Shown here piece by piece: positions 1,691 to 40,166 of a stretch of 64,000 bases of DNA. A program made the position numbers and the translations under genes. The notes under the pieces are model-generated. The model saw only the letters and a list, made by a program, of their open reading frames with translations, was not told the origin of the DNA and ran no database searches. Position 1 is the stretch's first letter, and each line of letters opens with the position of its first letter. The stretch comes from a virus (lineage: Duplodnaviria > Heunggongvirae > Uroviricota > Caudoviricetes): the IMG/VR virus record IMGVR_UViG_2695420859_000012. One strand, 5' to 3'.

Positions 1691-4030
1691 TTAATCTTCT
1701 AATTCATCTGTCGGTGATGTCTTCTCGCGCCTGTCATCTATTGCCTGTAACGCAGCAATGATTTCAGCTAATGGCTTCTCCCGGTACATCTCGACGATCT
1801 GTGATTTGGTGTATTTCTTCTCGCCAATTTCCACACGCCCGCTGGCGCTCTTGGGCAGGTATCCTTCCTCCAGCATGTATTCAACCAGAGACTCGACGAC
1901 GTCCAGCCCGCGAGTCGGGTCGAAGTAGAATTTCCATGAGCATTTGCCAAACGGAGGCGCGACTTTGTTTTTAATGCACTCGGCGCCAACGTCCTGTCCG
2001 ATCTTCTCTTTGCCATCCTTCATGACGGATGCACCCAGACGGATGCGCACCGACGCGTAGAACTTCGGAGAGTCGCCACCCGGAGACGTAGTCGGATCGC
2101 CAAACATCACACCAATTTTGGTACGCACCTGGTTCAAGAAGATGATGCACGCGTTGTACTTACGCGCCCAAAGCGCCAGAGTAGGGAAGTTCGCACTTGT
2201 CGCGCGCGCCAGCGCCGTGTTGTCGTTCATGTTCAGCTGATCTTTGTCTTTCGCAGTGCCTTCTGCCATCTTGTCGAACTTCTCAGCCTTCGAGTTCGGA
2301 ACCATCGACGCCAGAGAGTCGGCTACGATGCAGATAGGGGCTGTTTCCGGAATAAGCTCTTCGTCGCGCACCAGCTTGAGGATTGTGCCGATCAGCTCTA
2401 CGGAGTCTTCGAAGGTATCCGGCTGTTTGTAGACCCACTGACCGTCATCCTCATCTGCGTTCAGGCCATTGGCTACAGCCAGGCCAACGTCAAAACTGTT
2501 TTCATGATCGAGGAATACCGCCAGACCATCTTGTTTTTGAGCGGAGATCATCGCTGCTGTTGCAAGGAATGTGTTGTGGCTGATAATCCCGTTAGACCAG
2601 AAAGAGTGTGTTTCCGGCATCGCTACGTCGAACGTTGGTGCTTCACCTTCCTCAATAGCCACGACTTCGTCGTAGAACAAGTTAGAGCCAATTACCGCTG
2701 CCAGTTGTGCAAACAGATGCTCGTTAAAACGATTCTTTCTGCCAATGAAGGAGACATAGATTTCTCGCAGTTTGTCTATTCCGACACGATCGCCGCGGCC
2801 AATAACGTGGTCTACCAGAGCGTAGTCTTCACGGGTGGTCTTGGTGAGCGACTCGTAGAGTGATTTCACTAAGCCGCTGATGTGCGGAACATAGCCTGAG
2901 TAAGTGCGGTCAAAACCAATGTCCCGTTTGGTTGCCACTGATAAACGTGCCGGAGATTCGAAACCAATCGTTGACAGAAAAAGGTCGTAATTAGAGCCAC
3001 TGAATGACAGCCGGTAATATGTATTTTCATAACCCGCGACGTGTTTTTCAGAGATAGTTGACGTAATCCCCAGATTCAGGAGCATGAGGCGAATTTGCTG
3101 TAGCAGCAGCCCACTCGCGCTCACAACCTCAATGCAGCGACCATCATTGACGTGGCATTCCAGCTCAAAGTAGCCGCGAAGGAATGCAATTTGAGCCTCG
3201 CTATTGGCGCGACGCACACTCAACGGAACCTGCTTGCCAGCAGCTTTCTCATACTCCAGACCATATTCTTTAAAAAGCAGCGAACGCACCTCTTTGCTAA
3301 ACAGCACATGGTCTTCCGAGCCGTTATGTTTTCTCGTAACTGGCATCTTGTCTGATACCAGCGAAATGAGGCGGTAGTACTCATCCTTGATGAAAGGATC
3401 TGTGTTAGAAAAATTCACTGAATTTTCAGAGGCGACGTATCCGTCAGCAATTAAATAGCCCATCAGTTTTGCGATATTGGCATCCAGGTGCTGATCGCCG
3501 AATTGATGTGTGCCAACCATTGAAGGAATCGTGTCGCCTACACTGATTTTTTCAGCATGTCGCCAGACGACATTACCTAAGTCGTCAACCACACGGATTG
3601 GGTGACGGAACGTAGCCTCGATATAACCGCCTGATGCCAGCTTAATACGCTTGAATTTGCGACGGTTGTTCCATGTCAGGTGTGAGGTCTTCTCTATCAC
3701 GCCATTTTCATTGATGAGTCCAACGTTATGCTCTACATCGCGAGTAGTGCATGTCGCTTTGTACCCTTCAATCTCAAACAACTCTTTCACTGTTACCATT
3801 CCACGCTCCGTCAGCAGCATGGTGTCTGCGGTAACACATTTCCCTGCACTTGGAGGACCGAATACTTCGACGATACGACCACATGGGAAGCCGCCATCGT
3901 AACGACCAGAAATAGCTTTGTTTAACGGTGGAAAGCCTGTATCAATCCAATGAGTTACTTTCTGAATTTCGTCGTTGCTACCGATTTTCTTTTTCAGAGC
4001 AAGTGCCAGTGCGGATTTTCCTTTTGCCAT
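1691..4030 (-). CDS. recA: RecA-family recombinase interrupted by an intein in the Walker A P-loop
   Basis: N-extein ends GRIVEVFGPPSAGK, C-extein resumes TFLATAAM... and contains IIFLNQVRTKIGVMFGDPTTSPGGDSPKFYASVRIRL, closely matching bacterial RecA as recalled; exteins total 357 aa. Confidence 0.85.
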   Translation of the reverse strand: MAKGKSALALALKKKIGSNDEIQKVTHWIDTGFPPLNKAISGRYDGGFPCGRIVEVFGPPSAGKCVTADTMLLTERGMVTVKELFEIEGYKATCTTRDVEHNVGLINENGVIEKTSHLTWNNRRKFKRIKLASGGYIEATFRHPIRVVDDLGNVVWRHAEKISVGDTIPSMVGTHQFGDQHLDANIAKLMGYLIADGYVASENSVNFSNTDPFIKDEYYRLISLVSDKMPVTRKHNGSEDHVLFSKEVRSLLFKEYGLEYEKAAGKQVPLSVRRANSEAQIAFLRGYFELECHVNDGRCIEVVSASGLLLQQIRLMLLNLGITSTISEKHVAGYENTYYRLSFSGSNYDLFLSTIGFESPARLSVATKRDIGFDRTYSGYVPHISGLVKSLYESLTKTTREDYALVDHVIGRGDRVGIDKLREIYVSFIGRKNRFNEHLFAQLAAVIGSNLFYDEVVAIEEGEAPTFDVAMPETHSFWSNGIISHNTFLATAAMISAQKQDGLAVFLDHENSFDVGLAVANGLNADEDDGQWVYKQPDTFEDSVELIGTILKLVRDEELIPETAPICIVADSLASMVPNSKAEKFDKMAEGTAKDKDQLNMNDNTALARATSANFPTLALWARKYNACIIFLNQVRTKIGVMFGDPTTSPGGDSPKFYASVRIRLGASVMKDGKEKIGQDVGAECIKNKVAPPFGKCSWKFYFDPTRGLDVVESLVEYMLEEGYLPKSASGRVEIGEKKYTKSQIVEMYREKPLAEIIAALQAIDDRREKTSPTDELED
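2573..3838 (-). mobile_element. Intein (about 422 aa) with LAGLIDADG homing-endonuclease domain, inside the recA P-loop
   Basis: Begins with Cys immediately after GPPSAGK and ends ...IISHN followed by Thr; LAGLIDADG-type blocks LMGYLIADGYV and FLRGYFELECHVNDG. Confidence 0.8.
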
Positions 4031-31959: not shown

Positions 31960-31990
31960 AAAAAAGGCGACCAAAGTCGCCTTATTTTTA
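31960..31990. terminator. Intrinsic terminator
   Basis: aaggcgac-caaa-gtcgcctt followed by atttttaa. Confidence 0.65.
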
Positions 31991-32740
31991 ATCTTTTAGG
32001 TATAAACCTACTGGAGTTCTTGTTTTGCGGGAGATGATAAGTACGATAAATTTCTGAACGTTAACTTGCACTTTGTTTGGGAGCCAAGAGCTTAACTCTG
32101 CATCAAGCAACAATCCTCTGTTCCACGGCAAAAATCCGGTTTCTTTCCCCATCCCGTACTCGCCTAACACATCCTCGAACGTTTCTGTTTTGGCATTGTA
32201 TATACGCACATCGCCGGTTCGCATGAGAGGCCCTGCCCAGATCTTAGCACCAGGAATGGTTTGTGTATCGTCGCAGACTAAATGCTCATACCAATGAAGA
32301 AGAAAGAGATAGGTACGGTGACACAATCCTCGCTGACGACGCTCTCTGACAGTTTCGACACCGGCTACCTGGTAACATTCGATCTCATTACCGTCTTCAA
32401 CAAAACTATATTCACGCAGAGCTATCCTACCAGCGATCGTATTTTTGTTTTCGTCCAGAAGCCCGGACTGGAGCACCTCTTTGATAATCTCTTCTTCAGG
32501 GGCATCTTCATCCGCTCGATCTAAGATGAATTCGCTCAGGTCGCCTTGGTCGCGCGCACCTACAAGTTCCATAGAGACATACAGGCAAATGTCATCTTCT
32601 GGTTCAATGATTTCAATTTCTGAGATTTTATAGAGGGAGGCTTCATTGATAAGAAAGCCAAAACGAACAACACGAGTCTCCCCTTTATGAGGAAACTCGC
32701 TTAGATCTTTTGAATATGCGCTATCTAGTGTAGGAGCCAT
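31988..32740 (-). CDS. Hypothetical protein
   Basis: 250 aa, overlaps upstream ORF. Confidence 0.4.
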   Translation of the reverse strand: MAPTLDSAYSKDLSEFPHKGETRVVRFGFLINEASLYKISEIEIIEPEDDICLYVSMELVGARDQGDLSEFILDRADEDAPEEEIIKEVLQSGLLDENKNTIAGRIALREYSFVEDGNEIECYQVAGVETVRERRQRGLCHRTYLFLLHWYEHLVCDDTQTIPGAKIWAGPLMRTGDVRIYNAKTETFEDVLGEYGMGKETGFLPWNRGLLLDAELSSWLPNKVQVNVQKFIVLIISRKTRTPVGLYLKD

Positions 32741-33108
32741 TTTGTAGCAGAATCATCAGCCTTAACCGTGCTGACAATGCTACCATGATTGCGTAAGAAG
32801 CGGCGAATAGAATGTTCAATAACCTCCGAAAAAGCCTCGATAAAACGAGACAGCTCAGGGTACTGTTTAGCTGGCTTGACTACAAAACGAACACGACCAT
32901 TCAGGTAAATTGCTTCAGCTAATGGCTTCACGCTTGCACCAGCGCGCTCAACATCGTCTTTGAAGGTAACGATGAAGCGTGAGTCTTCCGGTTCAATAGC
33001 GTCATTATTGAGCTTACGTACTTCAAGCTTGTGCTGATTCAGCACATGAGTCTCGATAATACTCGTGCAATCGCGAATAGTTTGTATAGAACGTTTCTCG
33101 TTCAGCAT
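32725..33108 (-). CDS. Hypothetical protein
   Basis: 127-aa ORF. Confidence 0.4.
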   Translation of the reverse strand: MLNEKRSIQTIRDCTSIIETHVLNQHKLEVRKLNNDAIEPEDSRFIVTFKDDVERAGASVKPLAEAIYLNGRVRFVVKPAKQYPELSRFIEAFSEVIEHSIRRFLRNHGSIVSTVKADDSATKWLLH

Positions 33109-33332: not shown

Positions 33333-33560
33333 TCAGTTCAGGTGCCCCCACTCACACAACCTTTCACCTATCGTATTGTGGATAAGCAACTGTCGCTCCG
33401 TTTCCTCAGTCATAAAATCCTCTCTACTCACATAAATAGGATTTGCAGCATCGCAGAATAGCACGCCTGGAGCCTGCGTCTTAATCACGCACCCATTTAT
33501 CAAACAGCTCGCGATGAACACCAGAGGCATCTTTTTGCCGCACTTCATTAACCGTTTCAT
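33333..33560 (-). CDS. Outer-membrane spanin (Rz1-like lipoprotein), overlapping the i-spanin gene
   Basis: Frame overlapping 33481..33732; internal start MKRLMKCGKKMPLVFIASC with lipobox IASC; start choice approximate. Confidence 0.45.
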   Translation of the reverse strand: MKRLMKCGKKMPLVFIASCLINGCVIKTQAPGVLFCDAANPIYVSREDFMTEETERQLLIHNTIGERLCEWGHLN

Positions 33561-33732
33561 TTTTGACATCCACTGTGCTTTGAAGTCGTTTTCTGTCTTC
33601 CTGTTTTGCCTTCTCTTCCATTGCTCGTCGCGCCGCATTTCCGCCCATCGTGTAAGCGCCGACAAGAACGAAAAGAACGGCAGCCAGCGTAATCAAAGCA
33701 ACTTTTAGCTTTGTCATCAGGCTGCCTAGCAT
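33481..33732 (-). CDS. Inner-membrane spanin (Rz-like)
   Basis: 83 aa; N-terminal TM helix then charged segment. Confidence 0.5.
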   Translation of the reverse strand: MLGSLMTKLKVALITLAAVLFVLVGAYTMGGNAARRAMEEKAKQEDRKRLQSTVDVKNETVNEVRQKDASGVHRELFDKWVRD

Positions 33733-33733
33733 A

Positions 33734-34453
33734 TTAGACCATCCCTTTCTGGTGTTTTCTTACCTGCGACCAGGCAATGAATCCTGCCACAACAATAGTG
33801 GCAATACCGAAGATGATGCGTACTGTATCCCCGCTAGAGATATGACCTTGTGCTTTATCCATAGCAGCGGAAACCTGCGGCATAACATCGGCAAGCTGCG
33901 CCAGACCAATACCTGCTGTGACAGTTGCGCCTGCGGTTTCTTTAGTTACAGGAACAGCCTTCACGGTTTTCACCGGCTTAACGACGCCGGCTCGACGCAG
34001 ACCTTCCTCAATAACTTCTGCCGCATACCAGGTGTTCAGCGTTTTTAGTGGACCTCGACCATTCTCGTGGCGAATGATTGCCTCAACCAAAGGTCGAAGG
34101 ATGTCGTAATCATGCAGATCGATGATCATGTCTGCGGTTACACCAACGGCTTTAGACACCTCATTAATGTAGGCGTCAGTGTTGTTTTCATTCGGCGGTG
34201 CCCAACGTTCAATAACTTCACGAATGGTATCGATACTTGAGCCGTCTTTTGCGCGACGTTTGTCGTGGTAGGTAATTAGAGTCACCGCCAGCGCACGAAT
34301 CCCCCAAACAGGGTCTTTAAACGTGCAAAAGCGCGGTTCGTCTGGATTCGCAACCAGACCTTGCCACGGTGATCCTTTATCAAGATTACCGGGGTTATTA
34401 TTACGAATGCCTCTCGGAGTCTTCATCCTTGATCTCCTGTTATTGCAGTCCAT
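33734..34453 (-). CDS. Putative endolysin with C-terminal hydrophobic segment
   Basis: Assigned by position between holin-like and spanin genes; enzymatic family not identified by eye. Confidence 0.45.
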   Translation of the reverse strand: MDCNNRRSRMKTPRGIRNNNPGNLDKGSPWQGLVANPDEPRFCTFKDPVWGIRALAVTLITYHDKRRAKDGSSIDTIREVIERWAPPNENNTDAYINEVSKAVGVTADMIIDLHDYDILRPLVEAIIRHENGRGPLKTLNTWYAAEVIEEGLRRAGVVKPVKTVKAVPVTKETAGATVTAGIGLAQLADVMPQVSAAMDKAQGHISSGDTVRIIFGIATIVVAGFIAWSQVRKHQKGMV

Positions 34454-34763
34454 TTTTTACGCCATACGCGGCTAACCCCAAAAGCAGTGCAGTAATAATG
34501 AACGACGTTATTTTAGAAACAATGCCGCCAAAGAACCCACTGGAGATGGAATCTAACCGGTTAAGGAGTTTGTCCAGATTGGAGTGTTGAATACTATGTT
34601 GCGCCGGGGTCATATCACCAAAGTAGGTTTTCAGCTGATCATTGACCTCCTGGCCAATTTCTTCACGTAGCTCTTTACCTAATTTGCCAACAACCTCCCG
34701 AGCAACGATCGCGGCAATACGCTCAACTTGCTCTGTTGTAACGCTCGCCATCTCGTTCGACAT
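34440..34763 (-). CDS. Holin-like membrane protein
   Basis: Start re-called at M5 behind GGAGG (track 34440..34775); C-terminal TM ITSFIITALLLGLAAYGV. Confidence 0.45.
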   Translation of the reverse strand: MSNEMASVTTEQVERIAAIVAREVVGKLGKELREEIGQEVNDQLKTYFGDMTPAQHSIQHSNLDKLLNRLDSISSGFFGGIVSKITSFIITALLLGLAAYGVKNGLQ

Positions 34764-34844
34764 GTTTTCCTCCATGAAAAGTCAAATCGGGATGGCGGAT
34801 TTATATCACATTTCACCCTTTTATTGTAGGTGTGTACCTACCTA

Positions 34845-35078
34845 TCATTCAGCATTGCAACGGACTGATGAGAAAGCACCTACTCCTACCCATCGCCAGT
34901 TATAGATACTACCCGCTTTGTATAAGGTATAGTCGTTCACTTTTTTAACAGCATATATGGGTATGACTGTCTCCTGTCCACCAATGATAGCCTCACCGTA
35001 ACATATAGGTGTCGGCAATTTCTGGCAGCCAGTAAGAGAGAGAACAACAGCTATTATTAGAAATAATCTTTTCATCAT
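34845..35078 (-). CDS. Small lipoprotein next to tail-fibre genes (candidate superinfection-exclusion lipoprotein)
   Basis: 77 aa; lipobox LTGC. Confidence 0.45.
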   Translation of the reverse strand: MMKRLFLIIAVVLSLTGCQKLPTPICYGEAIIGGQETVIPIYAVKKVNDYTLYKAGSIYNWRWVGVGAFSSVRCNAE

Positions 35079-35085
35079 TTACTCA

Positions 35086-35694
35086 TCAGTTATACAGATT
35101 TCTATTTATTACCGGTACTCTGCCATTTACGCTAAAACTATGGCCGCCATTAAGTTGGTTTACGAATATCGAGCTAACAGTATTTCCATATGCCGCATAT
35201 CCATAAACCATTGTCATGGCTCCGCCCGGTACTGGAACAGCGAACACATTCGCATATGTTGGGATTATCGCTGGTGGGTAATCAAAAACATGCCCTCCAG
35301 AGCTGTTCCACTCCGTATTATTAAGAAAGGTAAATGAAAGTGGGATATTTGCCGTATTATAGATTTCCTCCCCTTGTGCATTGAAAAAACTCATGCCCCA
35401 AGTTTCTTTTTTGGCTATACCTTTCGAAAATACGTATATCGTGGCACTAGAGTCGCTACCCTGACCTCCGAAACTGTAAATCACCTGGTTGTTACGCACT
35501 ATTCTGTTGGCTATTAATGAAACAGCTTTCGAATAGGCAACAAAAATCATCGGTGAACGATCTGGAGATATTTGGGTGTTAAACTCTGTCCCGCCGGACA
35601 AAGAAACAACCTGCTTTCTCTGAAAAACGATAGGAGACAAAGAAGGAGACATCCAGACCTTCCCGTCAGATCGATATATCTTGCTTCCGTACAT
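35086..35694 (-). CDS. Hypothetical tail-fibre-associated protein
   Basis: 202 aa; translationally coupled to upstream ORF (TAATG); Gly/Ser/Asn-rich. Confidence 0.4.
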   Translation of the reverse strand: MYGSKIYRSDGKVWMSPSLSPIVFQRKQVVSLSGGTEFNTQISPDRSPMIFVAYSKAVSLIANRIVRNNQVIYSFGGQGSDSSATIYVFSKGIAKKETWGMSFFNAQGEEIYNTANIPLSFTFLNNTEWNSSGGHVFDYPPAIIPTYANVFAVPVPGGAMTMVYGYAAYGNTVSSIFVNQLNGGHSFSVNGRVPVINRNLYN

Positions 35695-35948
35695 TATTTT
35701 TGAAAAACCAATATGTTTAAATTACCACTAGCTCCAGACCACGAAATGGTATTTCCAGAAACCGTAAGACTTGTGTATTTTCCATTGGTTACGTCCATTA
35801 TGTAATAGTCGATTCCCAATCCCGCCTCAACCTCATATGTTCTACTTCCTGAACCAGAGGGAGTAAAATAATCGAGGTAATAAACAGGGGCCAACGCATC
35901 GACCATCTCCTGTCTTGATGGCGACCAAACCTGTGCACCATAGCTCAT
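35694..35948 (-). CDS. Hypothetical tail-fibre-associated protein
   Basis: 84 aa immediately downstream of tail-fibre gene. Confidence 0.4.
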   Translation of the reverse strand: MSYGAQVWSPSRQEMVDALAPVYYLDYFTPSGSGSRTYEVEAGLGIDYYIMDVTNGKYTSLTVSGNTISWSGASGNLNILVFQK

Positions 35949-36008: not shown

Positions 36009-39000
36009 TTATTCTTTAGGTGAATTTAACTTCGTTTCAAGCTCCTCAACCCTTTTGGTCAATTGCTGAATATGATGAATGAGTGGTACAACCAAACGCT
36101 CATACATCACTCCTTCAGCGACCATACCATTTGAGGAAATATCTTCTGGAGAATCATTATTTGTTGGTTCACGCCAATGGACATATTGCGGGGCAATCTC
36201 ACCAACCTCTTCAGCAATAAGGCCGTAATACCCCCAATCCTTTCGGTCACCTCGACAAATTGAACGATACCAAACAGGTCTTAATGACAAAAGTTCATCA
36301 GCATATCGATCTTGTAATGTTTCAATATCCTTTTTATAGCGCCTTGAAGAGGTTGAACGCCAAACTGTATTGATACCTGGGTTTGGATCAATGTACATAT
36401 TGGCACCGCTAGTAGTTGTGCCAATATCCCATATAGCAAACCCTCCACTACCGCCTGATTTGACAACCAGTGTTTCAGCAATAATATCCAGGTTGCCACT
36501 ATAGCCTGTCAGTGATGATCTGCTTGCATAGGAACTTAGAAGGTTTGTTACCTCTGTTTTCGTGTAAGCATTAAGGTTAGCCGCAGTCAAAGTTATATCG
36601 GCAGAGCCATCAAACGCCACACCAGCAATTTTCCTTGCTGTCTGCAATTTTGTGGCGGTTGCGGCATTACCAGTAGTGTTCTGATTACCAGTTGTATTCA
36701 CACCAGGGATTGAATCCTTAGCGGTATATACCTGCGCCCACGCTGACCATGCCGCACCTGTGTTATCTCTTCGTGAGCGAATGAAAACTGGCGCATGTGC
36801 ACCGCTCGTACCACTCCAGCCAATAAGCAACTCTCCCTCACCAGCAGCACTCGCACCTTTCATGTGCAATACGTTGCCATACATGGTCGGGTAGCTATTG
36901 TTGTACGCCTCGTACATTTGAATGCCAGCAGTGCCTTGAGTAGAGCCGCTTAACGCCGTAACTCGGCCACGAGATACCAATGTATTAATGTTGATATCGC
37001 CTGAGCCATCAAACTTAACACCATTGATGTTTCTCGCTGTTTGCAACTTCGTAGCTGTTGAAGCATTACCGTTCAAACTACCATTTACGCCACCAGTCAC
37101 ATTTAGTCCATTACCAATTGATACAGCACCGCTGGTATTATTAATTGTAATAGGTCGCAAACCGTTCCATGAACCTAATGTGTCTCCTGATGCTGTTAGC
37201 ATGAAATATGTGTTCGATCCATCATTACGGATAAAGAACCCAAAGCTACCGTAAGCAATGCGGAAACCATTTGCATATTTTGAAATGATCTCGCCAGAAG
37301 ATGTCAAACCTCCAGATAATGTACCACCGGTAAGAGGTAATGCACCGACATCAGAGGCTGTTGGTTTGTTTTTCGTGTTATATACTCTTCGCCATCCCGG
37401 AGAATAATCTGTGCCATTAAATACATAGATAAACTCCGCATTAGTGAGAGCACCAGAGACACTCGTCGTTGTGGCCGTTGTTATACGGATCGTATAATTG
37501 TTTGAGCTACTACCGTTATTAAATACCTCTATAACAGCTCCTGCCAATGGAATAACGCCACAACCAGTTTCACTATTTGGTATGGTTGCACTATTGGCAT
37601 AGGCCCACGCACATCGAGCAATCCATGACTTTGTGTTAAATGCTCCATTATTTTGCAATAACGTCACTAACTGTGCTGTTGTTATTGCTCCGCCATTACT
37701 TCCTGTAGTTAACCAACCAGTAGGAGATGCCGGGCAACCTATATTTGCTGGCGACAAGGAAATATTTGCCGAGCCGTCAAACGACACCCCATTGATAGTA
37801 CGCGCAGTCTGCAACTTCGTAGCAGTAGCCGCGTTGCCCGTTGTATTCTGATTACCAGTCGTATTAACACCTGGCAAATTAATATTCGCAGTACCATCAA
37901 AGCTCACGCCGCCGATAGTTCTTGCCGTCTGAAGTTTTGTAGCAGTTGCAGCATTACCAGTGGTGTTCTGATTACCCGTAGTATTTACACCTGGAAGGTT
38001 GATATTTGCAGAACCGTCGAAACCAACTCCACCGATAGATCTTGCCGTCTGCAATTTCGTTGCTGTACTTGCATTACCATTTAATGTTCCGGTGATCCCA
38101 CCAGTAACAGACAACGGACCTGAAACTGTTCCTCCGGTTGTTGGCAGTGCTCCAATATCTAACGGCGTCGGTTTCTGATGTGTGCTATACATCGTATAAA
38201 CAACACCATCGGTAACGCTGGAAGGCTTACTAGCTGAATATGTTGGCGATGTATAAATAGAAACTGTCGCATTTGCAGTACAATCCCAATGGATATTTAC
38301 ACGAGTCGCATAATTGCCAATCTCAACGTAAATATCATATGTATCGCCGGATGTGTTGATCCAGGCGAAATTCGTTAATCCGACAGCTGTACGCTTCCAC
38401 AAAGCACCTGTAATCCCTTTGGGGTTTCCATTGCCTGCTCGTAGAACCAGTTCTGAAATGCCTGCCTGATGTGGGGAGCCGACGTTGTAACCAGCGCCAC
38501 CAATCAATGCGATGTAAACGATGGAACTCGCTTGTGGCATGGTAACCGTAGCCAGTTTGAACCACCCTGCCCCGCCAGAGAAAGACATCGTTACTGAATT
38601 TAAAGTACCAATATCTTTCGGCGTTAATGTGATATCCGCAGTCAGTGCTTTACCGTTAACTTTTCGGTTAGATGGCACCCTGCTATTCGCATTGTCATTG
38701 GCTGCTTTAACTGCTTTTGGCGTTGCGGCCAGCGATTCACTGGTGCTGTCGACAGCACTGCTAAGTTTCACAACACCTTTAGTTGTAAGGCTTGCGTCTT
38801 CCATCGCAACTGCACCGGCAATCTCTTCAGCACGATCAGCAGCAGCTTCCGCACGGGTCGCAGCGGATTCAGCAGCAGTTTTGCTCTGAGATGCTGCCGT
38901 CGCACTGCCTGCCGCCTCTGTTGCTTTCGTGGATGCCGTCGTGGCGCTGCCCTTCGCTGCTGACGCCTGTCTGGTCGCCTCATCTTTTGAAGCAGACGCA

Positions 39001-40166
39001 GATGATGCCGATGACGCTGCCGAACTGGCGGACGATGCGGCTGCCGTTTTTGAGGATTCTGCACGGGTTTCCGACGCTTTCGCGTTCGTTTCGGATGTCT
39101 TCGCTGCGGAAGCAGACCTCGCTGCTGCGCTGGCCTGTTCAGTGGCTTCGCCAGCCTTCGTTGTGGCTGTTGAAGCAGACGATGCGGCACTTTCTGCCGA
39201 TTTTCCGGCGGCTGTGGCACTGGCTGAGGCCTGCCCGGCACTTGTTGACGCGGCACTGGCAGACGACGCAGCCGCTGTTTTTGAGCCTGCTGCAGCCGAG
39301 GCGCTCTGTCCCGCTGCCGTTTCAGAAGACCTGGCGTTCGTCTCGGACGTTTTTGCCGCCTTCGCGGAATTTCCTGCCGCCGTTGCCGAGGAAGCTGCGC
39401 TACTGGCGCTCGAGGATGCGTTCGTTTCTGATGATTTCGCTGCCTCTTTTGAGGCCGCCGCATCCCGGGCTGAGGTGGCAGCTTCTGACGCTTTCGTGGT
39501 CGCGGTGGATGCAGAAGTGGCTGCTGATTGTTGTGACGCTGCGGCATTCGTTTCAGATTTTTTCGCAGCAGTTGCACTCGCACTTGCGGCACTTTGTGAG
39601 GATGCCGCAGCGGATGCACTTTGAGACGCTTGAGAGGCTTTTTCTCCAGCGGTATTGGCGCTTTCTGCTGCTGCGGCAGCACTGGCCGCCGCCTCACGAG
39701 CTTTGTCGCCAGCAGCATCAATCGCGTCAGTGTTATTTTTATACCACTCAACGTTTTCGTTGTGCTCGTTGACGATCTGCATTAGCGGCTTAACGGTTAC
39801 TTCTGAACCGTCTTCACGCTCGATTGTCACCTCATCCAGAGCAGTCAACCAACTGCGCATGGACTTGGAATCAGCCGACATACGCGACATTAGTGCTGTA
39901 AAGCGCGCGCTAAACTGTGTTAAGTCGCCTTCATAGGTCGTAATGATTCGGCACGGAACTTCAGACTGAGTTTCGCCGGTATAAGGTTCTGAGAGAACAA
40001 TGTTCGTATCACTGGTTACGCGCTTGATCTCATACAGCTTATTGTCGGGGCCAATGACGATCATCCCCGGCAACACACCATTAGCTGTTACGTTCCAGGC
40101 TGTCCCTGCCCCAACCAGAGTATTGCTGCCCTGTGTAAATGTGATAGTACCTTCCCTGTACCACAT
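36009..40166 (-). CDS. Long tail fibre with C-terminal intramolecular-chaperone domain
   Basis: 1385 aa; Ala/Ser/Thr-rich shaft; repeated NAATATKLQTARTIGGVSFDG fibre motifs; C-terminal ...SSRRYKKDIETLQ... region resembles the S74-type chaperone as recalled. Confidence 0.8.
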   Translation of the reverse strand: MWYREGTITFTQGSNTLVGAGTAWNVTANGVLPGMIVIGPDNKLYEIKRVTSDTNIVLSEPYTGETQSEVPCRIITTYEGDLTQFSARFTALMSRMSADSKSMRSWLTALDEVTIEREDGSEVTVKPLMQIVNEHNENVEWYKNNTDAIDAAGDKAREAAASAAAAAESANTAGEKASQASQSASAAASSQSAASASATAAKKSETNAAASQQSAATSASTATTKASEAATSARDAAASKEAAKSSETNASSSASSAASSATAAGNSAKAAKTSETNARSSETAAGQSASAAAGSKTAAASSASAASTSAGQASASATAAGKSAESAASSASTATTKAGEATEQASAAARSASAAKTSETNAKASETRAESSKTAAASSASSAASSASSASASKDEATRQASAAKGSATTASTKATEAAGSATAASQSKTAAESAATRAEAAADRAEEIAGAVAMEDASLTTKGVVKLSSAVDSTSESLAATPKAVKAANDNANSRVPSNRKVNGKALTADITLTPKDIGTLNSVTMSFSGGAGWFKLATVTMPQASSIVYIALIGGAGYNVGSPHQAGISELVLRAGNGNPKGITGALWKRTAVGLTNFAWINTSGDTYDIYVEIGNYATRVNIHWDCTANATVSIYTSPTYSASKPSSVTDGVVYTMYSTHQKPTPLDIGALPTTGGTVSGPLSVTGGITGTLNGNASTATKLQTARSIGGVGFDGSANINLPGVNTTGNQNTTGNAATATKLQTARTIGGVSFDGTANINLPGVNTTGNQNTTGNAATATKLQTARTINGVSFDGSANISLSPANIGCPASPTGWLTTGSNGGAITTAQLVTLLQNNGAFNTKSWIARCAWAYANSATIPNSETGCGVIPLAGAVIEVFNNGSSSNNYTIRITTATTTSVSGALTNAEFIYVFNGTDYSPGWRRVYNTKNKPTASDVGALPLTGGTLSGGLTSSGEIISKYANGFRIAYGSFGFFIRNDGSNTYFMLTASGDTLGSWNGLRPITINNTSGAVSIGNGLNVTGGVNGSLNGNASTATKLQTARNINGVKFDGSGDININTLVSRGRVTALSGSTQGTAGIQMYEAYNNSYPTMYGNVLHMKGASAAGEGELLIGWSGTSGAHAPVFIRSRRDNTGAAWSAWAQVYTAKDSIPGVNTTGNQNTTGNAATATKLQTARKIAGVAFDGSADITLTAANLNAYTKTEVTNLLSSYASRSSLTGYSGNLDIIAETLVVKSGGSGGFAIWDIGTTTSGANMYIDPNPGINTVWRSTSSRRYKKDIETLQDRYADELLSLRPVWYRSICRGDRKDWGYYGLIAEEVGEIAPQYVHWREPTNNDSPEDISSNGMVAEGVMYERLVVPLIHHIQQLTKRVEELETKLNSPKE

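Follow-up and report, generated by a model that had tools for sequence, protein, structure and literature searches.

A probable lysis cassette with an Enc34-type endolysin and overlapped spanin genes in an SSU5-like phage-plasmid of Escherichia coli

Background

The closest described counterparts of the locus studied here are found in Salmonella phage SSU5 (SSU5_026-030) and Escherichia phage Cyrano (CYRAN_22-25), which carry the same four genes in the same order and orientation, located after the tail-fibre module and before parA. In both records these genes are annotated as holin, endolysin, Rz and Rz1. The Rz1 annotations are inconsistent, with a 39-aa non-overlapping CDS in Cyrano and two alternative CDSs in SSU5. 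In a survey of spanins, the SSU5 i-spanin was catalogued and SSU5 was assigned to the Chi o-spanin family (PMC6139136). The paper on the host of Cyrano does not discuss the lysis genes.

More distant relatives have been studied experimentally. For the endolysin of Hafnia phage Enc34 (ORF39), degradation of peptidoglycan was shown and the structure was solved (PMC8943055). It combines an N-terminal catalytic domain with a C-terminal membrane domain of two helices, the same layout as in the endolysin of our locus, and its gene likewise lies between the gene of a small membrane protein and overlapped spanin genes. Chi-like (Chivirus) phages encode full-length homologues of the endolysin, e.g. M4Lys of Salmonella phage BSPM4, SPN19 gp36 and the Siskin endolysin. 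M4Lys has GlcNAc-ase activity and requires its membrane domain; lysis upon overexpression was independent of holin and Sec and insensitive to a Sec inhibitor (PMC7143992). Homologues of this endolysin type are beta-N-acetylglucosaminidases; they have a catalytic Glu and a lysozyme-like alpha-lobe fold. The chi-like phages also possess a homologous o-spanin and an i-spanin of the same size and layout. They are virulent or flagellotropic siphophages, whereas the element studied here is a phage-plasmid.

SAR endolysins (P1, phage 21, Mu) are also membrane-tethered, with a release or activation linked to events in the membrane, and they too can lyse cells without a holin when overexpressed (PMC8943055). 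In contrast to the C-terminal membrane domain found here, their SAR domain is N-terminal and Sec-exported. The S-R-Rz-Rz1 cassette of lambda follows the same logic and order, i.e. a membrane timer, a murein hydrolase, and a pair of inner- and outer-membrane spanins. However, none of its components is homologous to those of our cassette: lambda S has three TMDs, R is a soluble transglycosylase, and Rz1 is fully embedded in Rz.

Results

The window, i.e. the whole stretch of 64,000 nucleotides analyzed in this study, shares 5 kb at 100% identity with the E. coli plasmid NZ_CP080257.1 and is similar to 480 enterobacterial plasmids. Judged by its sequence, it is an SSU5-like phage-plasmid of E. 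coli. Positions 33333-34763 are filled by four co-oriented minus-strand genes in the order holin-like gene, endolysin, i-spanin and o-spanin. A preliminary description of this region had listed four open reading frames encoding a small TM protein, an endolysin, an i-spanin and an overlapping o-spanin lipoprotein. All four were found on the minus strand at the coordinates it gave, and the order agrees with the annotation of SSU5 and Cyrano and with the PHROG lysis families. Very probably, the region is a lysis cassette that is expressed late in a temperate phage-plasmid of the SSU5 type in E. coli. Such a cassette is ordinary and already annotated in SSU5-like phages. At the DNA level it is 83-95% identical to those of SSU5, Cyrano and PhiR41_1 (83% for SSU5, 94.6% for Cyrano), and the genes differ only allelically. 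The flanks differ from those in Cyrano, which has a KacAT toxin-antitoxin pair in place of two genes of unknown function and does not have the Cor-like genes of the window. A PADLOC analysis of the flanking genes resulted in no match, and no boundary of the cassette emerged from a scan for consensus promoters and terminators. None of the four proteins had a significant match in Pfam or NCBIfam; they were identified via PHROGs and a sequence search of the PDB.

The maximal open reading frame of the endolysin gene (33734-34453, minus strand) comprises 239 aa. The product is likely to have 230 aa (33734-34426), starting nine codons downstream, since AGGAG precedes the ATG at 34426 and a start there fits the N-termini of the homologues from SSU5, Cyrano, SPN19 and Enc34. 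Its family could not be recognized by eye in the preliminary description, but homology searches place it in the Enc34-type family (PHA02564). It matched the crystallized catalytic domain of phage Enc34 (PDB 7Q47) with E=1.5e-54 and 63.6% identity (96 of 151 positions) and the endolysin family phrog_873 with 6.4e-89. Identity to the chi-like SPN19 gp36 is 56% over the full length, membrane domain included, and matches that span 80% or more of the protein occur in 182 phage records. Compared with the Enc34 endolysin, it lacks two short insertions. The predicted catalytic domain, delimited by the alignment to the 7Q47 chain, spans approximately aa 1-150 (33977-34426). In this alignment W75, Y86 and E121 correspond to Trp79, Tyr95 and Glu131 of Enc34, for which roles have been described (PMC8943055); all three residues are conserved. 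Homology shows this protein to be an Enc34/M4Lys-type peptidoglycan hydrolase, whose activity is predicted accordingly, and the identity of 64% to a crystal structure settles the fold.

Two helices form the predicted membrane domain. Helix 1 (approximately aa 164-188; 33863-33937, minus strand) is weakly hydrophobic and rich in Ala and Gly. Its mean hydrophobicity on the Eisenberg scale reaches 0.5, which is below the Kyte-Doolittle threshold for a TMD. This helix is also conserved in SPN19 gp36, and a corresponding helix close to the enzymatically active domain has been described in Enc34 (PMC8943055) and Siskin. Helix 2 (aa 203-221; 33764-33820, minus strand) is a strong predicted TM segment with a hydropathy maximum of 2.07 (Kyte-Doolittle, 19-aa window), is conserved across 80 SSU5-like loci, and is followed by the basic tail RKHQKGMV at the C-terminus. 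The hydrophobic C-terminal tail had been called atypical. While it is unusual among endolysins in general, it is the hallmark of the Enc34, M4Lys and chi-like endolysins and the defining trait of the Enc34-type family (PMC8943055, PMC7143992, PMC6498227). The N-terminus, MKTPRGIRNNNPGN, is hydrophilic, and all hydrophobic segments are located in the C-terminal part. A SAR endolysin was rejected because the protein has no weakly hydrophobic signal-anchor-release domain at its N-terminus.

The last two genes are assigned by homology to a two-component spanin of overlapped architecture. The predicted i-spanin (83 aa; 33481-33732, minus strand) consists of an N-terminal TMD within aa 1-34 and a charged periplasmic helix, and matched the Rz-like spanin family phrog_1026 with 5.7e-25. 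The o-spanin lipoprotein precursor (75 aa; 33333-33560, minus strand) matched the Rz-like spanin family phrog_1275 with 2.7e-25 and is 47% identical to SPN19 gp34. Its start was set at 33560, since relatives have a stop codon just upstream of the equivalent Met. The two genes overlap in different frames by 80 nt (33481-33560), i.e. by about 27 of the 83 i-spanin codons, and the o-spanin gene ends beyond that of the i-spanin, whereas Rz1 of lambda is embedded. The overlap in another frame had been noted before, but it comprises the last third rather than the 3' half of the i-spanin gene. Two Cys residues are candidates for lipidation, C19 (IAS/C; 33504-33506) and C24 (LING/C; 33489-33491), in a region that reads MKRLMKCGKKMPLVFIAS/C LING/C V, with Leu or Val as +2 residue and no Asp. 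The former was the lipobox proposed in the preliminary description. It is present in the window, but the Cys is replaced by Phe in 17 of the 75 SSU5-like loci with a recognized motif (from a sample of 80). The LING/C Cys, five residues downstream, is found in all 75, aligns with the lipobox Cys of the chi-like o-spanins, and in one relative VING/C is the only lipobox candidate. C24 is predicted to be the lipidated Cys.

The holin-like gene (107 aa; 34440-34763, minus strand) is preceded by the Shine-Dalgarno sequence GGAGG (34769-34773), located 7 nt ahead of its start codon (ATG at 34763). An alternative upstream ATG (34773-34775) has no Shine-Dalgarno sequence, is overlapped by the GGAGG, and is considered unused. 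The stop codon lies 13 nt ahead of the endolysin start. The protein is composed of a charged N-terminal helix, the conserved motif FGDMTPxQHxxQH and one C-terminal TMD (approximately aa 85-102), after which only the five residues KNGLQ follow. An AF2 model with a mean pLDDT of 77.7 predicts two long helices (10-48 and 54-103). The protein matched phrog_5093, a family of unknown function, with 1.6e-68; G49, H56 and H60 are invariant in the family alignment. Literature searches for experimental work on the family yielded none. A tblastn search with the protein and two distant relatives yielded only 12 SSU5-like records among cultured phages.

The preliminary description had called this TM protein holin-like, and to this extent the term holds: a small membrane protein with one TMD is encoded next to the endolysin, and its homologues, 95-99% identical, are annotated as 'Holin' in Cyrano and 'putative holin' in SSU5. 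Nevertheless, no described holin family in Pfam, NCBIfam or PHROGs was matched, and the protein resembles no characterized holin in sequence. A highly charged hydrophilic C-terminal tail, typical of holins, is absent, and the charged part is N-terminal instead. Similarity to the chi-like 'holin' was not found; that protein has the opposite layout, with a TMD near the N-terminus followed by a long hydrophilic C-terminal part. The holin candidate of Enc34, with an N-terminal TMD and a dual start, is likewise unrelated to this C-terminally anchored protein. A holin function is thus suggested by position only, and the protein may regulate lysis rather than act as the only holin.

Conservation was assessed in 80 SSU5-like viral contigs, which provided near-full-length matches at 77-80 loci per gene. 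None of these matches contained an internal stop. The catalytic motif IIRHENG was present in 80 of 80 loci and ERWAPP in 79 of 80. The absence of internal stops together with the invariant IIRHENG motif argues against chance open reading frames.

Discussion

Our data are compatible with the following course of lysis. The endolysin would be made without a signal peptide, and its C-terminal helical hairpin would tether it to the inner membrane from the cytoplasmic side in an N-in/C-in topology. This topology fits the positive-inside rule, because both cytoplasmic ends are flanked by basic residues, with a neutral to acidic loop. The tail-anchored protein of 107 aa, predicted to be N-in, would accumulate in the inner membrane and time its breach, upon which the tethered catalytic domain would get to the murein and cleave it. 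The complex of the i-spanin in the inner membrane and the o-spanin, an outer-membrane lipoprotein, would then destroy the outer membrane.

A different distribution of roles within the lysis cassette is possible, although we consider it rather unlikely. The 107-aa protein would then be a tail-anchored timing regulator (antiholin-like or co-holin), and the C-terminal hairpin of the endolysin would make the membrane lesion, which would turn this enzyme into a natural endolysin-holin fusion. Support comes from the genomic contexts of phrog_5093 relatives, a family of about 56 representative clusters with 23-57% identity. In eight distinct contexts not of the Enc34 type (L006, L007/8, L010, L013/14, L016, L017, L102 and L103) a second small two-TMD protein is encoded within the next two genes. 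That of L010 matched phrog_8226 'holin' with 4e-10, and in that of L017 (121 aa) both hydrophobic segments are below the hydropathy threshold used. The endolysin belongs to Peptidase_M15_3 in four of these contexts and to phrog_669 in a fifth; none was identified in L006, L017 and L102. The additional two-TMD protein is absent where the endolysin has a membrane hairpin of its own, i.e. in the SSU5-like elements and in L011. Furthermore, this hairpin resembles class II holins in topology and has a basic C-terminus, and M4Lys can lyse cells by itself, depends on its TMD and is slowed slightly by the neighboring gene (PMC7143992).

However, the sample of contexts is small, with about ten lineages mostly on short metagenomic contigs. 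In a scan with a narrower phrog_5093 alignment the viral contigs were saturated by SSU5-like loci, and a scan for the NFWG subgroup gave only two viral loci and one metagenome locus. Most of the second small proteins carry no holin annotation. A BLAST comparison of the C-terminal 83 aa of the endolysin with the small two-TMD proteins of other cassettes resulted in nothing significant, and a fusion origin of the hairpin is therefore not supported by sequence. M4Lys was seen to lyse cells by itself only when strongly overexpressed, and its TMD alone did not lyse (PMC7143992). The chi-like 'holin' showed no toxicity and was dispensable for lysis (PMC7143992), but this partner is not homologous to the SSU5-type protein, so that the M4Lys experiment is not directly transferable. 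In a wider form of this reading, likewise rather unlikely, phrog_5093 proteins in general would represent a widespread, previously unrecognized type of tail-anchored lysis regulator or co-holin with an invariant G...H-x3-H juxtamembrane motif. They would work together with a two-TMD hole-forming module, which would be a separate small protein beside soluble endolysins and fused to the endolysin C-terminus in Enc34-type systems, whose endolysins would then be natural endolysin-holin fusions.

Two further explanations appear highly improbable. The first takes the PHA02564-domain protein for a virion-associated cell-wall hydrolase that serves DNA injection rather than lysis. The same catalytic domain indeed occurs inside large virion proteins (the tape measure family phrog_2276, the tail injection transglycosylase family phrog_7182, T7-like 'internal virion protein with endolysin domain', and PDB 9vvp Gp29), and some chi-like records name the PHA02564-domain protein 'structural protein'. 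The protein found here, by contrast, is a stand-alone polypeptide of 230 aa with a membrane anchor. Its gene follows the tail-fibre genes and is flanked by those of a small membrane protein and the spanins, and lysis from within has been shown for the full-length homologue M4Lys (PMC7143992); this explanation was therefore rejected. The preliminary description had named the lack of any peptidoglycan-hydrolase fold and a location of the lysis genes elsewhere as findings that would contradict it. The fold is evident from the identity to 7Q47, and the annotation of SSU5, covering the first 100 kb of a genome of 103 kb, contains no further endolysin or holin. The second explanation, a decaying and no longer functional remnant on a cryptic plasmid, would fit with the 'hypothetical protein' calls of PGAP for all four genes and with many SSU5-like plasmids never having been shown to yield phage, but it was rejected in view of the intact genes with good Shine-Dalgarno sites, the invariant catalytic motif, and the same cassette in the phage genome records of SSU5, Cyrano and PhiR41_1, of which SSU5 is an isolated phage in the literature.

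With the region read as a lysis cassette, little is left to discover about the cassette itself, and the practical value of the analysis is in annotation. The four genes, which PGAP labels 'hypothetical protein' on SSU5-like plasmids of enterobacteria by the hundreds, including many from clinical isolates, can now be named with confidence. Intact cassette genes are also a marker of a plasmid that is still a lysis-competent phage. For the whole Enc34/M4Lys family the question is how a catalytic domain without a signal peptide, tethered by a hairpin, crosses to the murein. A second question concerns the role of the neighboring single-TMD protein. Since they can be induced and are amenable to genetics in E. 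coli K-12, SSU5-like phage-plasmids offer a convenient system for addressing both questions.

The lysis cassette and its carrier element

All genes of the cassette lie on the minus strand of the window, and their open reading frames span exactly the coordinates given in the preliminary description, 33333-34763. The interpretation as a lysis cassette was correct as well: Escherichia phage Cyrano and Salmonella phage SSU5 carry the same cassette, annotated as Holin, Endolysin, Rz spanin and Rz1 spanin in the former and as putative holin, endolysin and Rz-like spanins in the latter. The gene order follows lambda logic. DNA identity is about 95% to Escherichia phages Cyrano and PhiR41_1 and 83% to SSU5. 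The 5 kb around the cassette are 100% identical to the 113-kb E. coli plasmid NZ_CP080257.1 and resemble 480 plasmids of Escherichia, Enterobacter, Klebsiella, Salmonella and other genera, on which PGAP labels all cassette genes 'hypothetical protein'. In SSU5 and in the window alike, the cassette is placed after the tail-fibre and Cor genes and before parA. These matches and the shared placement identify the window, by its sequence, as an SSU5-like phage-plasmid. A location of the lysis genes elsewhere had also been considered; within the 103-kb SSU5 record, the first 100 kb contain no further endolysin or holin annotation.

In 80 SSU5-like viral contigs, each of the four genes had 77-80 near-full-length matches, all free of internal stops. 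Median protein identity to the window was about 95% (holin-like protein), 94% (endolysin), 82% (i-spanin) and 67% (o-spanin), the spanins diverging much faster within these elements than the other two proteins.

The cassette forms a conserved island between variable slots (31988-33108 and 34845-35948). Downstream, the window has phrog_2594 and phrog_3307 genes (both of unknown function) at the place of a KacAT toxin-antitoxin pair in Cyrano. Upstream, the window and SSU5 share a Cor-like lipoprotein (phrog_1119), a phrog_425 membrane-associated protein and an 84-aa ORF, all absent from Cyrano. PADLOC gave no match for the flanking genes. Just upstream, a 1385-aa tail-fibre gene (36009-40166) contains a long Ala/Ser/Thr-rich low-complexity stretch and repeated 'NTTGNQNTTGNAATATKLQTAR' units; GC content reaches up to 0.53 in 38001-40000.

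Endolysin

The endolysin gene runs from 34426 to 33734 (230 aa), starting 13 nt past the stop of the holin-like gene and preceded by AGGAG. The 239 aa originally assigned to it result from the longest possible ORF, whose ATG at 34453 has no Shine-Dalgarno sequence. The homologues of SSU5, Cyrano, SPN19 and Enc34 all start where the downstream Met lies.

Pfam and NCBIfam yielded no match for this protein. It matched phrog_873 'endolysin' (6.4e-89) and the Hafnia phage Enc34 endolysin structure 7Q47 (E=1.5e-54), with 63.6% identity across the 151 positions aligned to the crystallised domain. This PHA02564 fold is all-helical, similar to the alpha-lobe of lysozyme and related to GH73 and GH23 enzymes (PMC8943055). 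Trp79, Tyr95 and Glu131, the Enc34 residues singled out in the same study, are all kept in the alignment as W75, Y86 and E121. The motif IIRHENG was found in 80/80 and ERWAPP in 79/80 SSU5-like loci. Identity to the endolysin of the chi-like phage SPN19 is 56% over the full length including the membrane domain, and matches in 182 phage records extend over at least 80% of the protein. The endolysin and spanin module is common to the cassette, Enc34 and chi-like phages.

Hydropathy analysis gave one strong TMD (aa 203-221), preceded by a weakly hydrophobic Ala/Gly-rich helix (aa ~164-188). The flanking charges, KPVKTVKAVPVTKE before the first helix, a neutral-to-acidic loop and RKHQKGMV at the end, fit the positive-inside rule for a putative N-in/C-in hairpin, a topology also predicted for the phage Siskin endolysin (PMC6498227). 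For the chi-like homologue M4Lys of Salmonella phage BSPM4, the catalytic domain releases GlcNAc from muropeptides; the full-length protein alone lyses E. coli, also with a Sec inhibitor, and lysis is lost without the TMD (PMC7143992). Given the solved structure and the work on M4Lys, the family that could not be named from the sequence by eye is therefore a known one, and the C-terminal tail, considered atypical, is its hallmark. A SAR endolysin was rejected, as the membrane domain is C-terminal and an N-terminal hydrophobic segment is missing. Sequence comparison did not support an origin of the hairpin by fusion.

The metagenomic contig logan:SRR30563942_22230 (L011), arranged like the window with a holin-like gene, an endolysin and overlapped spanins, encodes an Enc34-type protein (2868-3563) with 40% identity to the window endolysin. 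Its C-terminal half and membrane hairpin are well conserved; catalytic residues are changed (RHENG to VMYNG, ERWAPP to CEYRNL, GIRNNNPGN to GICINNPGL). It may be a catalytically dead protein kept for the membrane domain; alternatively, its active site may be a different one. Chain L of PDB 9vvp (Gp29, 1295 aa), a large phage protein of solved structure, has a PHA02564-type domain at its N-terminus (residues 3-115, E=6e-22), which shows a virion-embedded form of this catalytic domain.

Spanins

The i-spanin gene (33481-33732, 83 aa) begins 1 nt past the endolysin stop. Position 33665 is where the open frame of the o-spanin begins; the Met equivalent to 33560 directly follows a stop codon in Klebsiella phage p4727 and CMS-2020a, and the gene is therefore placed at 33333-33560 (75 aa). 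Hence the o-spanin does overlap the i-spanin 3' end, but only over the last 80 nt and not over half of the gene. Phage records are inconsistent here: in Cyrano, Rz1 (CYRAN_25, L001:3993-4112) is a 39-aa non-overlapping CDS starting past the lipobox, and SSU5 has two alternative Rz1 CDSs (SSU5_029/030, L002:3945-4175/3945-4091). The comparative start, together with the lipobox Cys that is conserved, points to one overlapped gene of 75-76 aa.

Both products are 'Rz-like spanin' in PHROGs (i-spanin phrog_1026, o-spanin phrog_1275), and the o-spanin is 47% identical to that of SPN19. In the spanin census of Kongari et al. the SSU5 i-spanin is a singleton and its o-spanin belongs to the Chi family (PMC6139136). 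The lipobox IAS|C noted in the preliminary description exists. Among the 75 loci of the 80 SSU5-like contigs with a recognisable motif, however, its cysteine is replaced by Phe in 17, while the cysteine five residues later is kept in all 75 (LING|C in the window, elsewhere ISG|C, VSG|C or TNG|C). Since this second cysteine also aligns with the lipobox Cys of SPN19 and, as VING|C, is the sole cysteine of the lipobox region in a low-GC relative, it most likely represents the conserved lipidation site; in the window protein either cysteine is formally possible.

The holin-like protein and phrog_5093

The first gene (34440-34763) encodes 107 aa and has GGAGG 7 nt 5' of its ATG. An in-frame ATG at 34775, four codons upstream, lacks a ribosome-binding site. 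Its conservation (MEEN-MSNEM; MEEI-MSNEM in SSU5) superficially resembles a dual start in 34764-34775; however, no Shine-Dalgarno sequence is present, and the added residues are acidic instead of basic and far from the C-terminal TMD.

Across Pfam, NCBIfam and PHROGs the protein matched only phrog_5093 'unknown function', and its only occurrences in cultured phages are in SSU5-like elements. The chi-like 'holin', with a TMD close to its N-terminus, is not similar to it. When 1.8 billion representatives were searched exhaustively with HMMER, 56 relatives were retrieved (~50-160 aa, 23-98% identity; full-length ones ~95-160 aa, 23-57%). These share a charged N-terminal helix, an FGDMTPxQHxxQH motif with invariant G49, H56 and H60, and a C-terminal TMD. 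All 22 relatives scanned matched phrog_5093, and none of them convincingly matched Pfam. AF2 on the family alignment predicted two long helices (10-48 and 54-103; mean pLDDT 77.7, pTM 0.32), the second spanning the TMD. The TMD is followed by just five residues, which makes this a tail-anchored protein; the charged C-terminal tail usual in holins is absent.

Wherever upstream sequence was available, except in L018, phrog_5093 members come after tail-fibre or other structural genes, usually as the first gene of a lysis-like cluster. In the distant contexts L007/L008, L013/L014, L016 and L103 a Peptidase_M15_3 endolysin, a small two-TMD protein and spanins follow; in L010 a phrog_8226 'holin' and a phrog_669 endolysin. 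A two-TMD protein comes directly after the phrog_5093 member in L006 and L102; in L017 this place is taken by a 121-aa protein whose two hydrophobic segments are weak and stay below the hydropathy threshold. Such an extra protein is missing only in L011 and the SSU5-like elements, both with Enc34-type endolysins bearing their own membrane hairpin. That phrog_5093 proteins are combined with three or more unrelated endolysin families (Peptidase_M15_3, phrog_669, Enc34-type) is good evidence, from gene context, for a part in lysis. With another holin-like gene regularly present, they may either form the hole or act as regulators.

For timing control, 'holin' stays the favoured reading of the 107-aa protein. 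That the lesion is made by the endolysin hairpin itself, with the 107-aa protein as its modulator, appears less likely; it would agree with the additional holin-like genes in other phrog_5093 contexts and with the chi-like partner, non-homologous to the 107-aa protein, which is non-toxic and slightly delays M4Lys lysis on co-expression (PMC7143992), although the context pattern derives from only about ten lineages. The cassette as such is already known: phage records annotate its genes, a crystal structure and biochemical data exist for the endolysin family, and the spanins have been catalogued. Some novelty lies only in phrog_5093, as an uncharacterised family, and in the context pattern of its members across these lineages.
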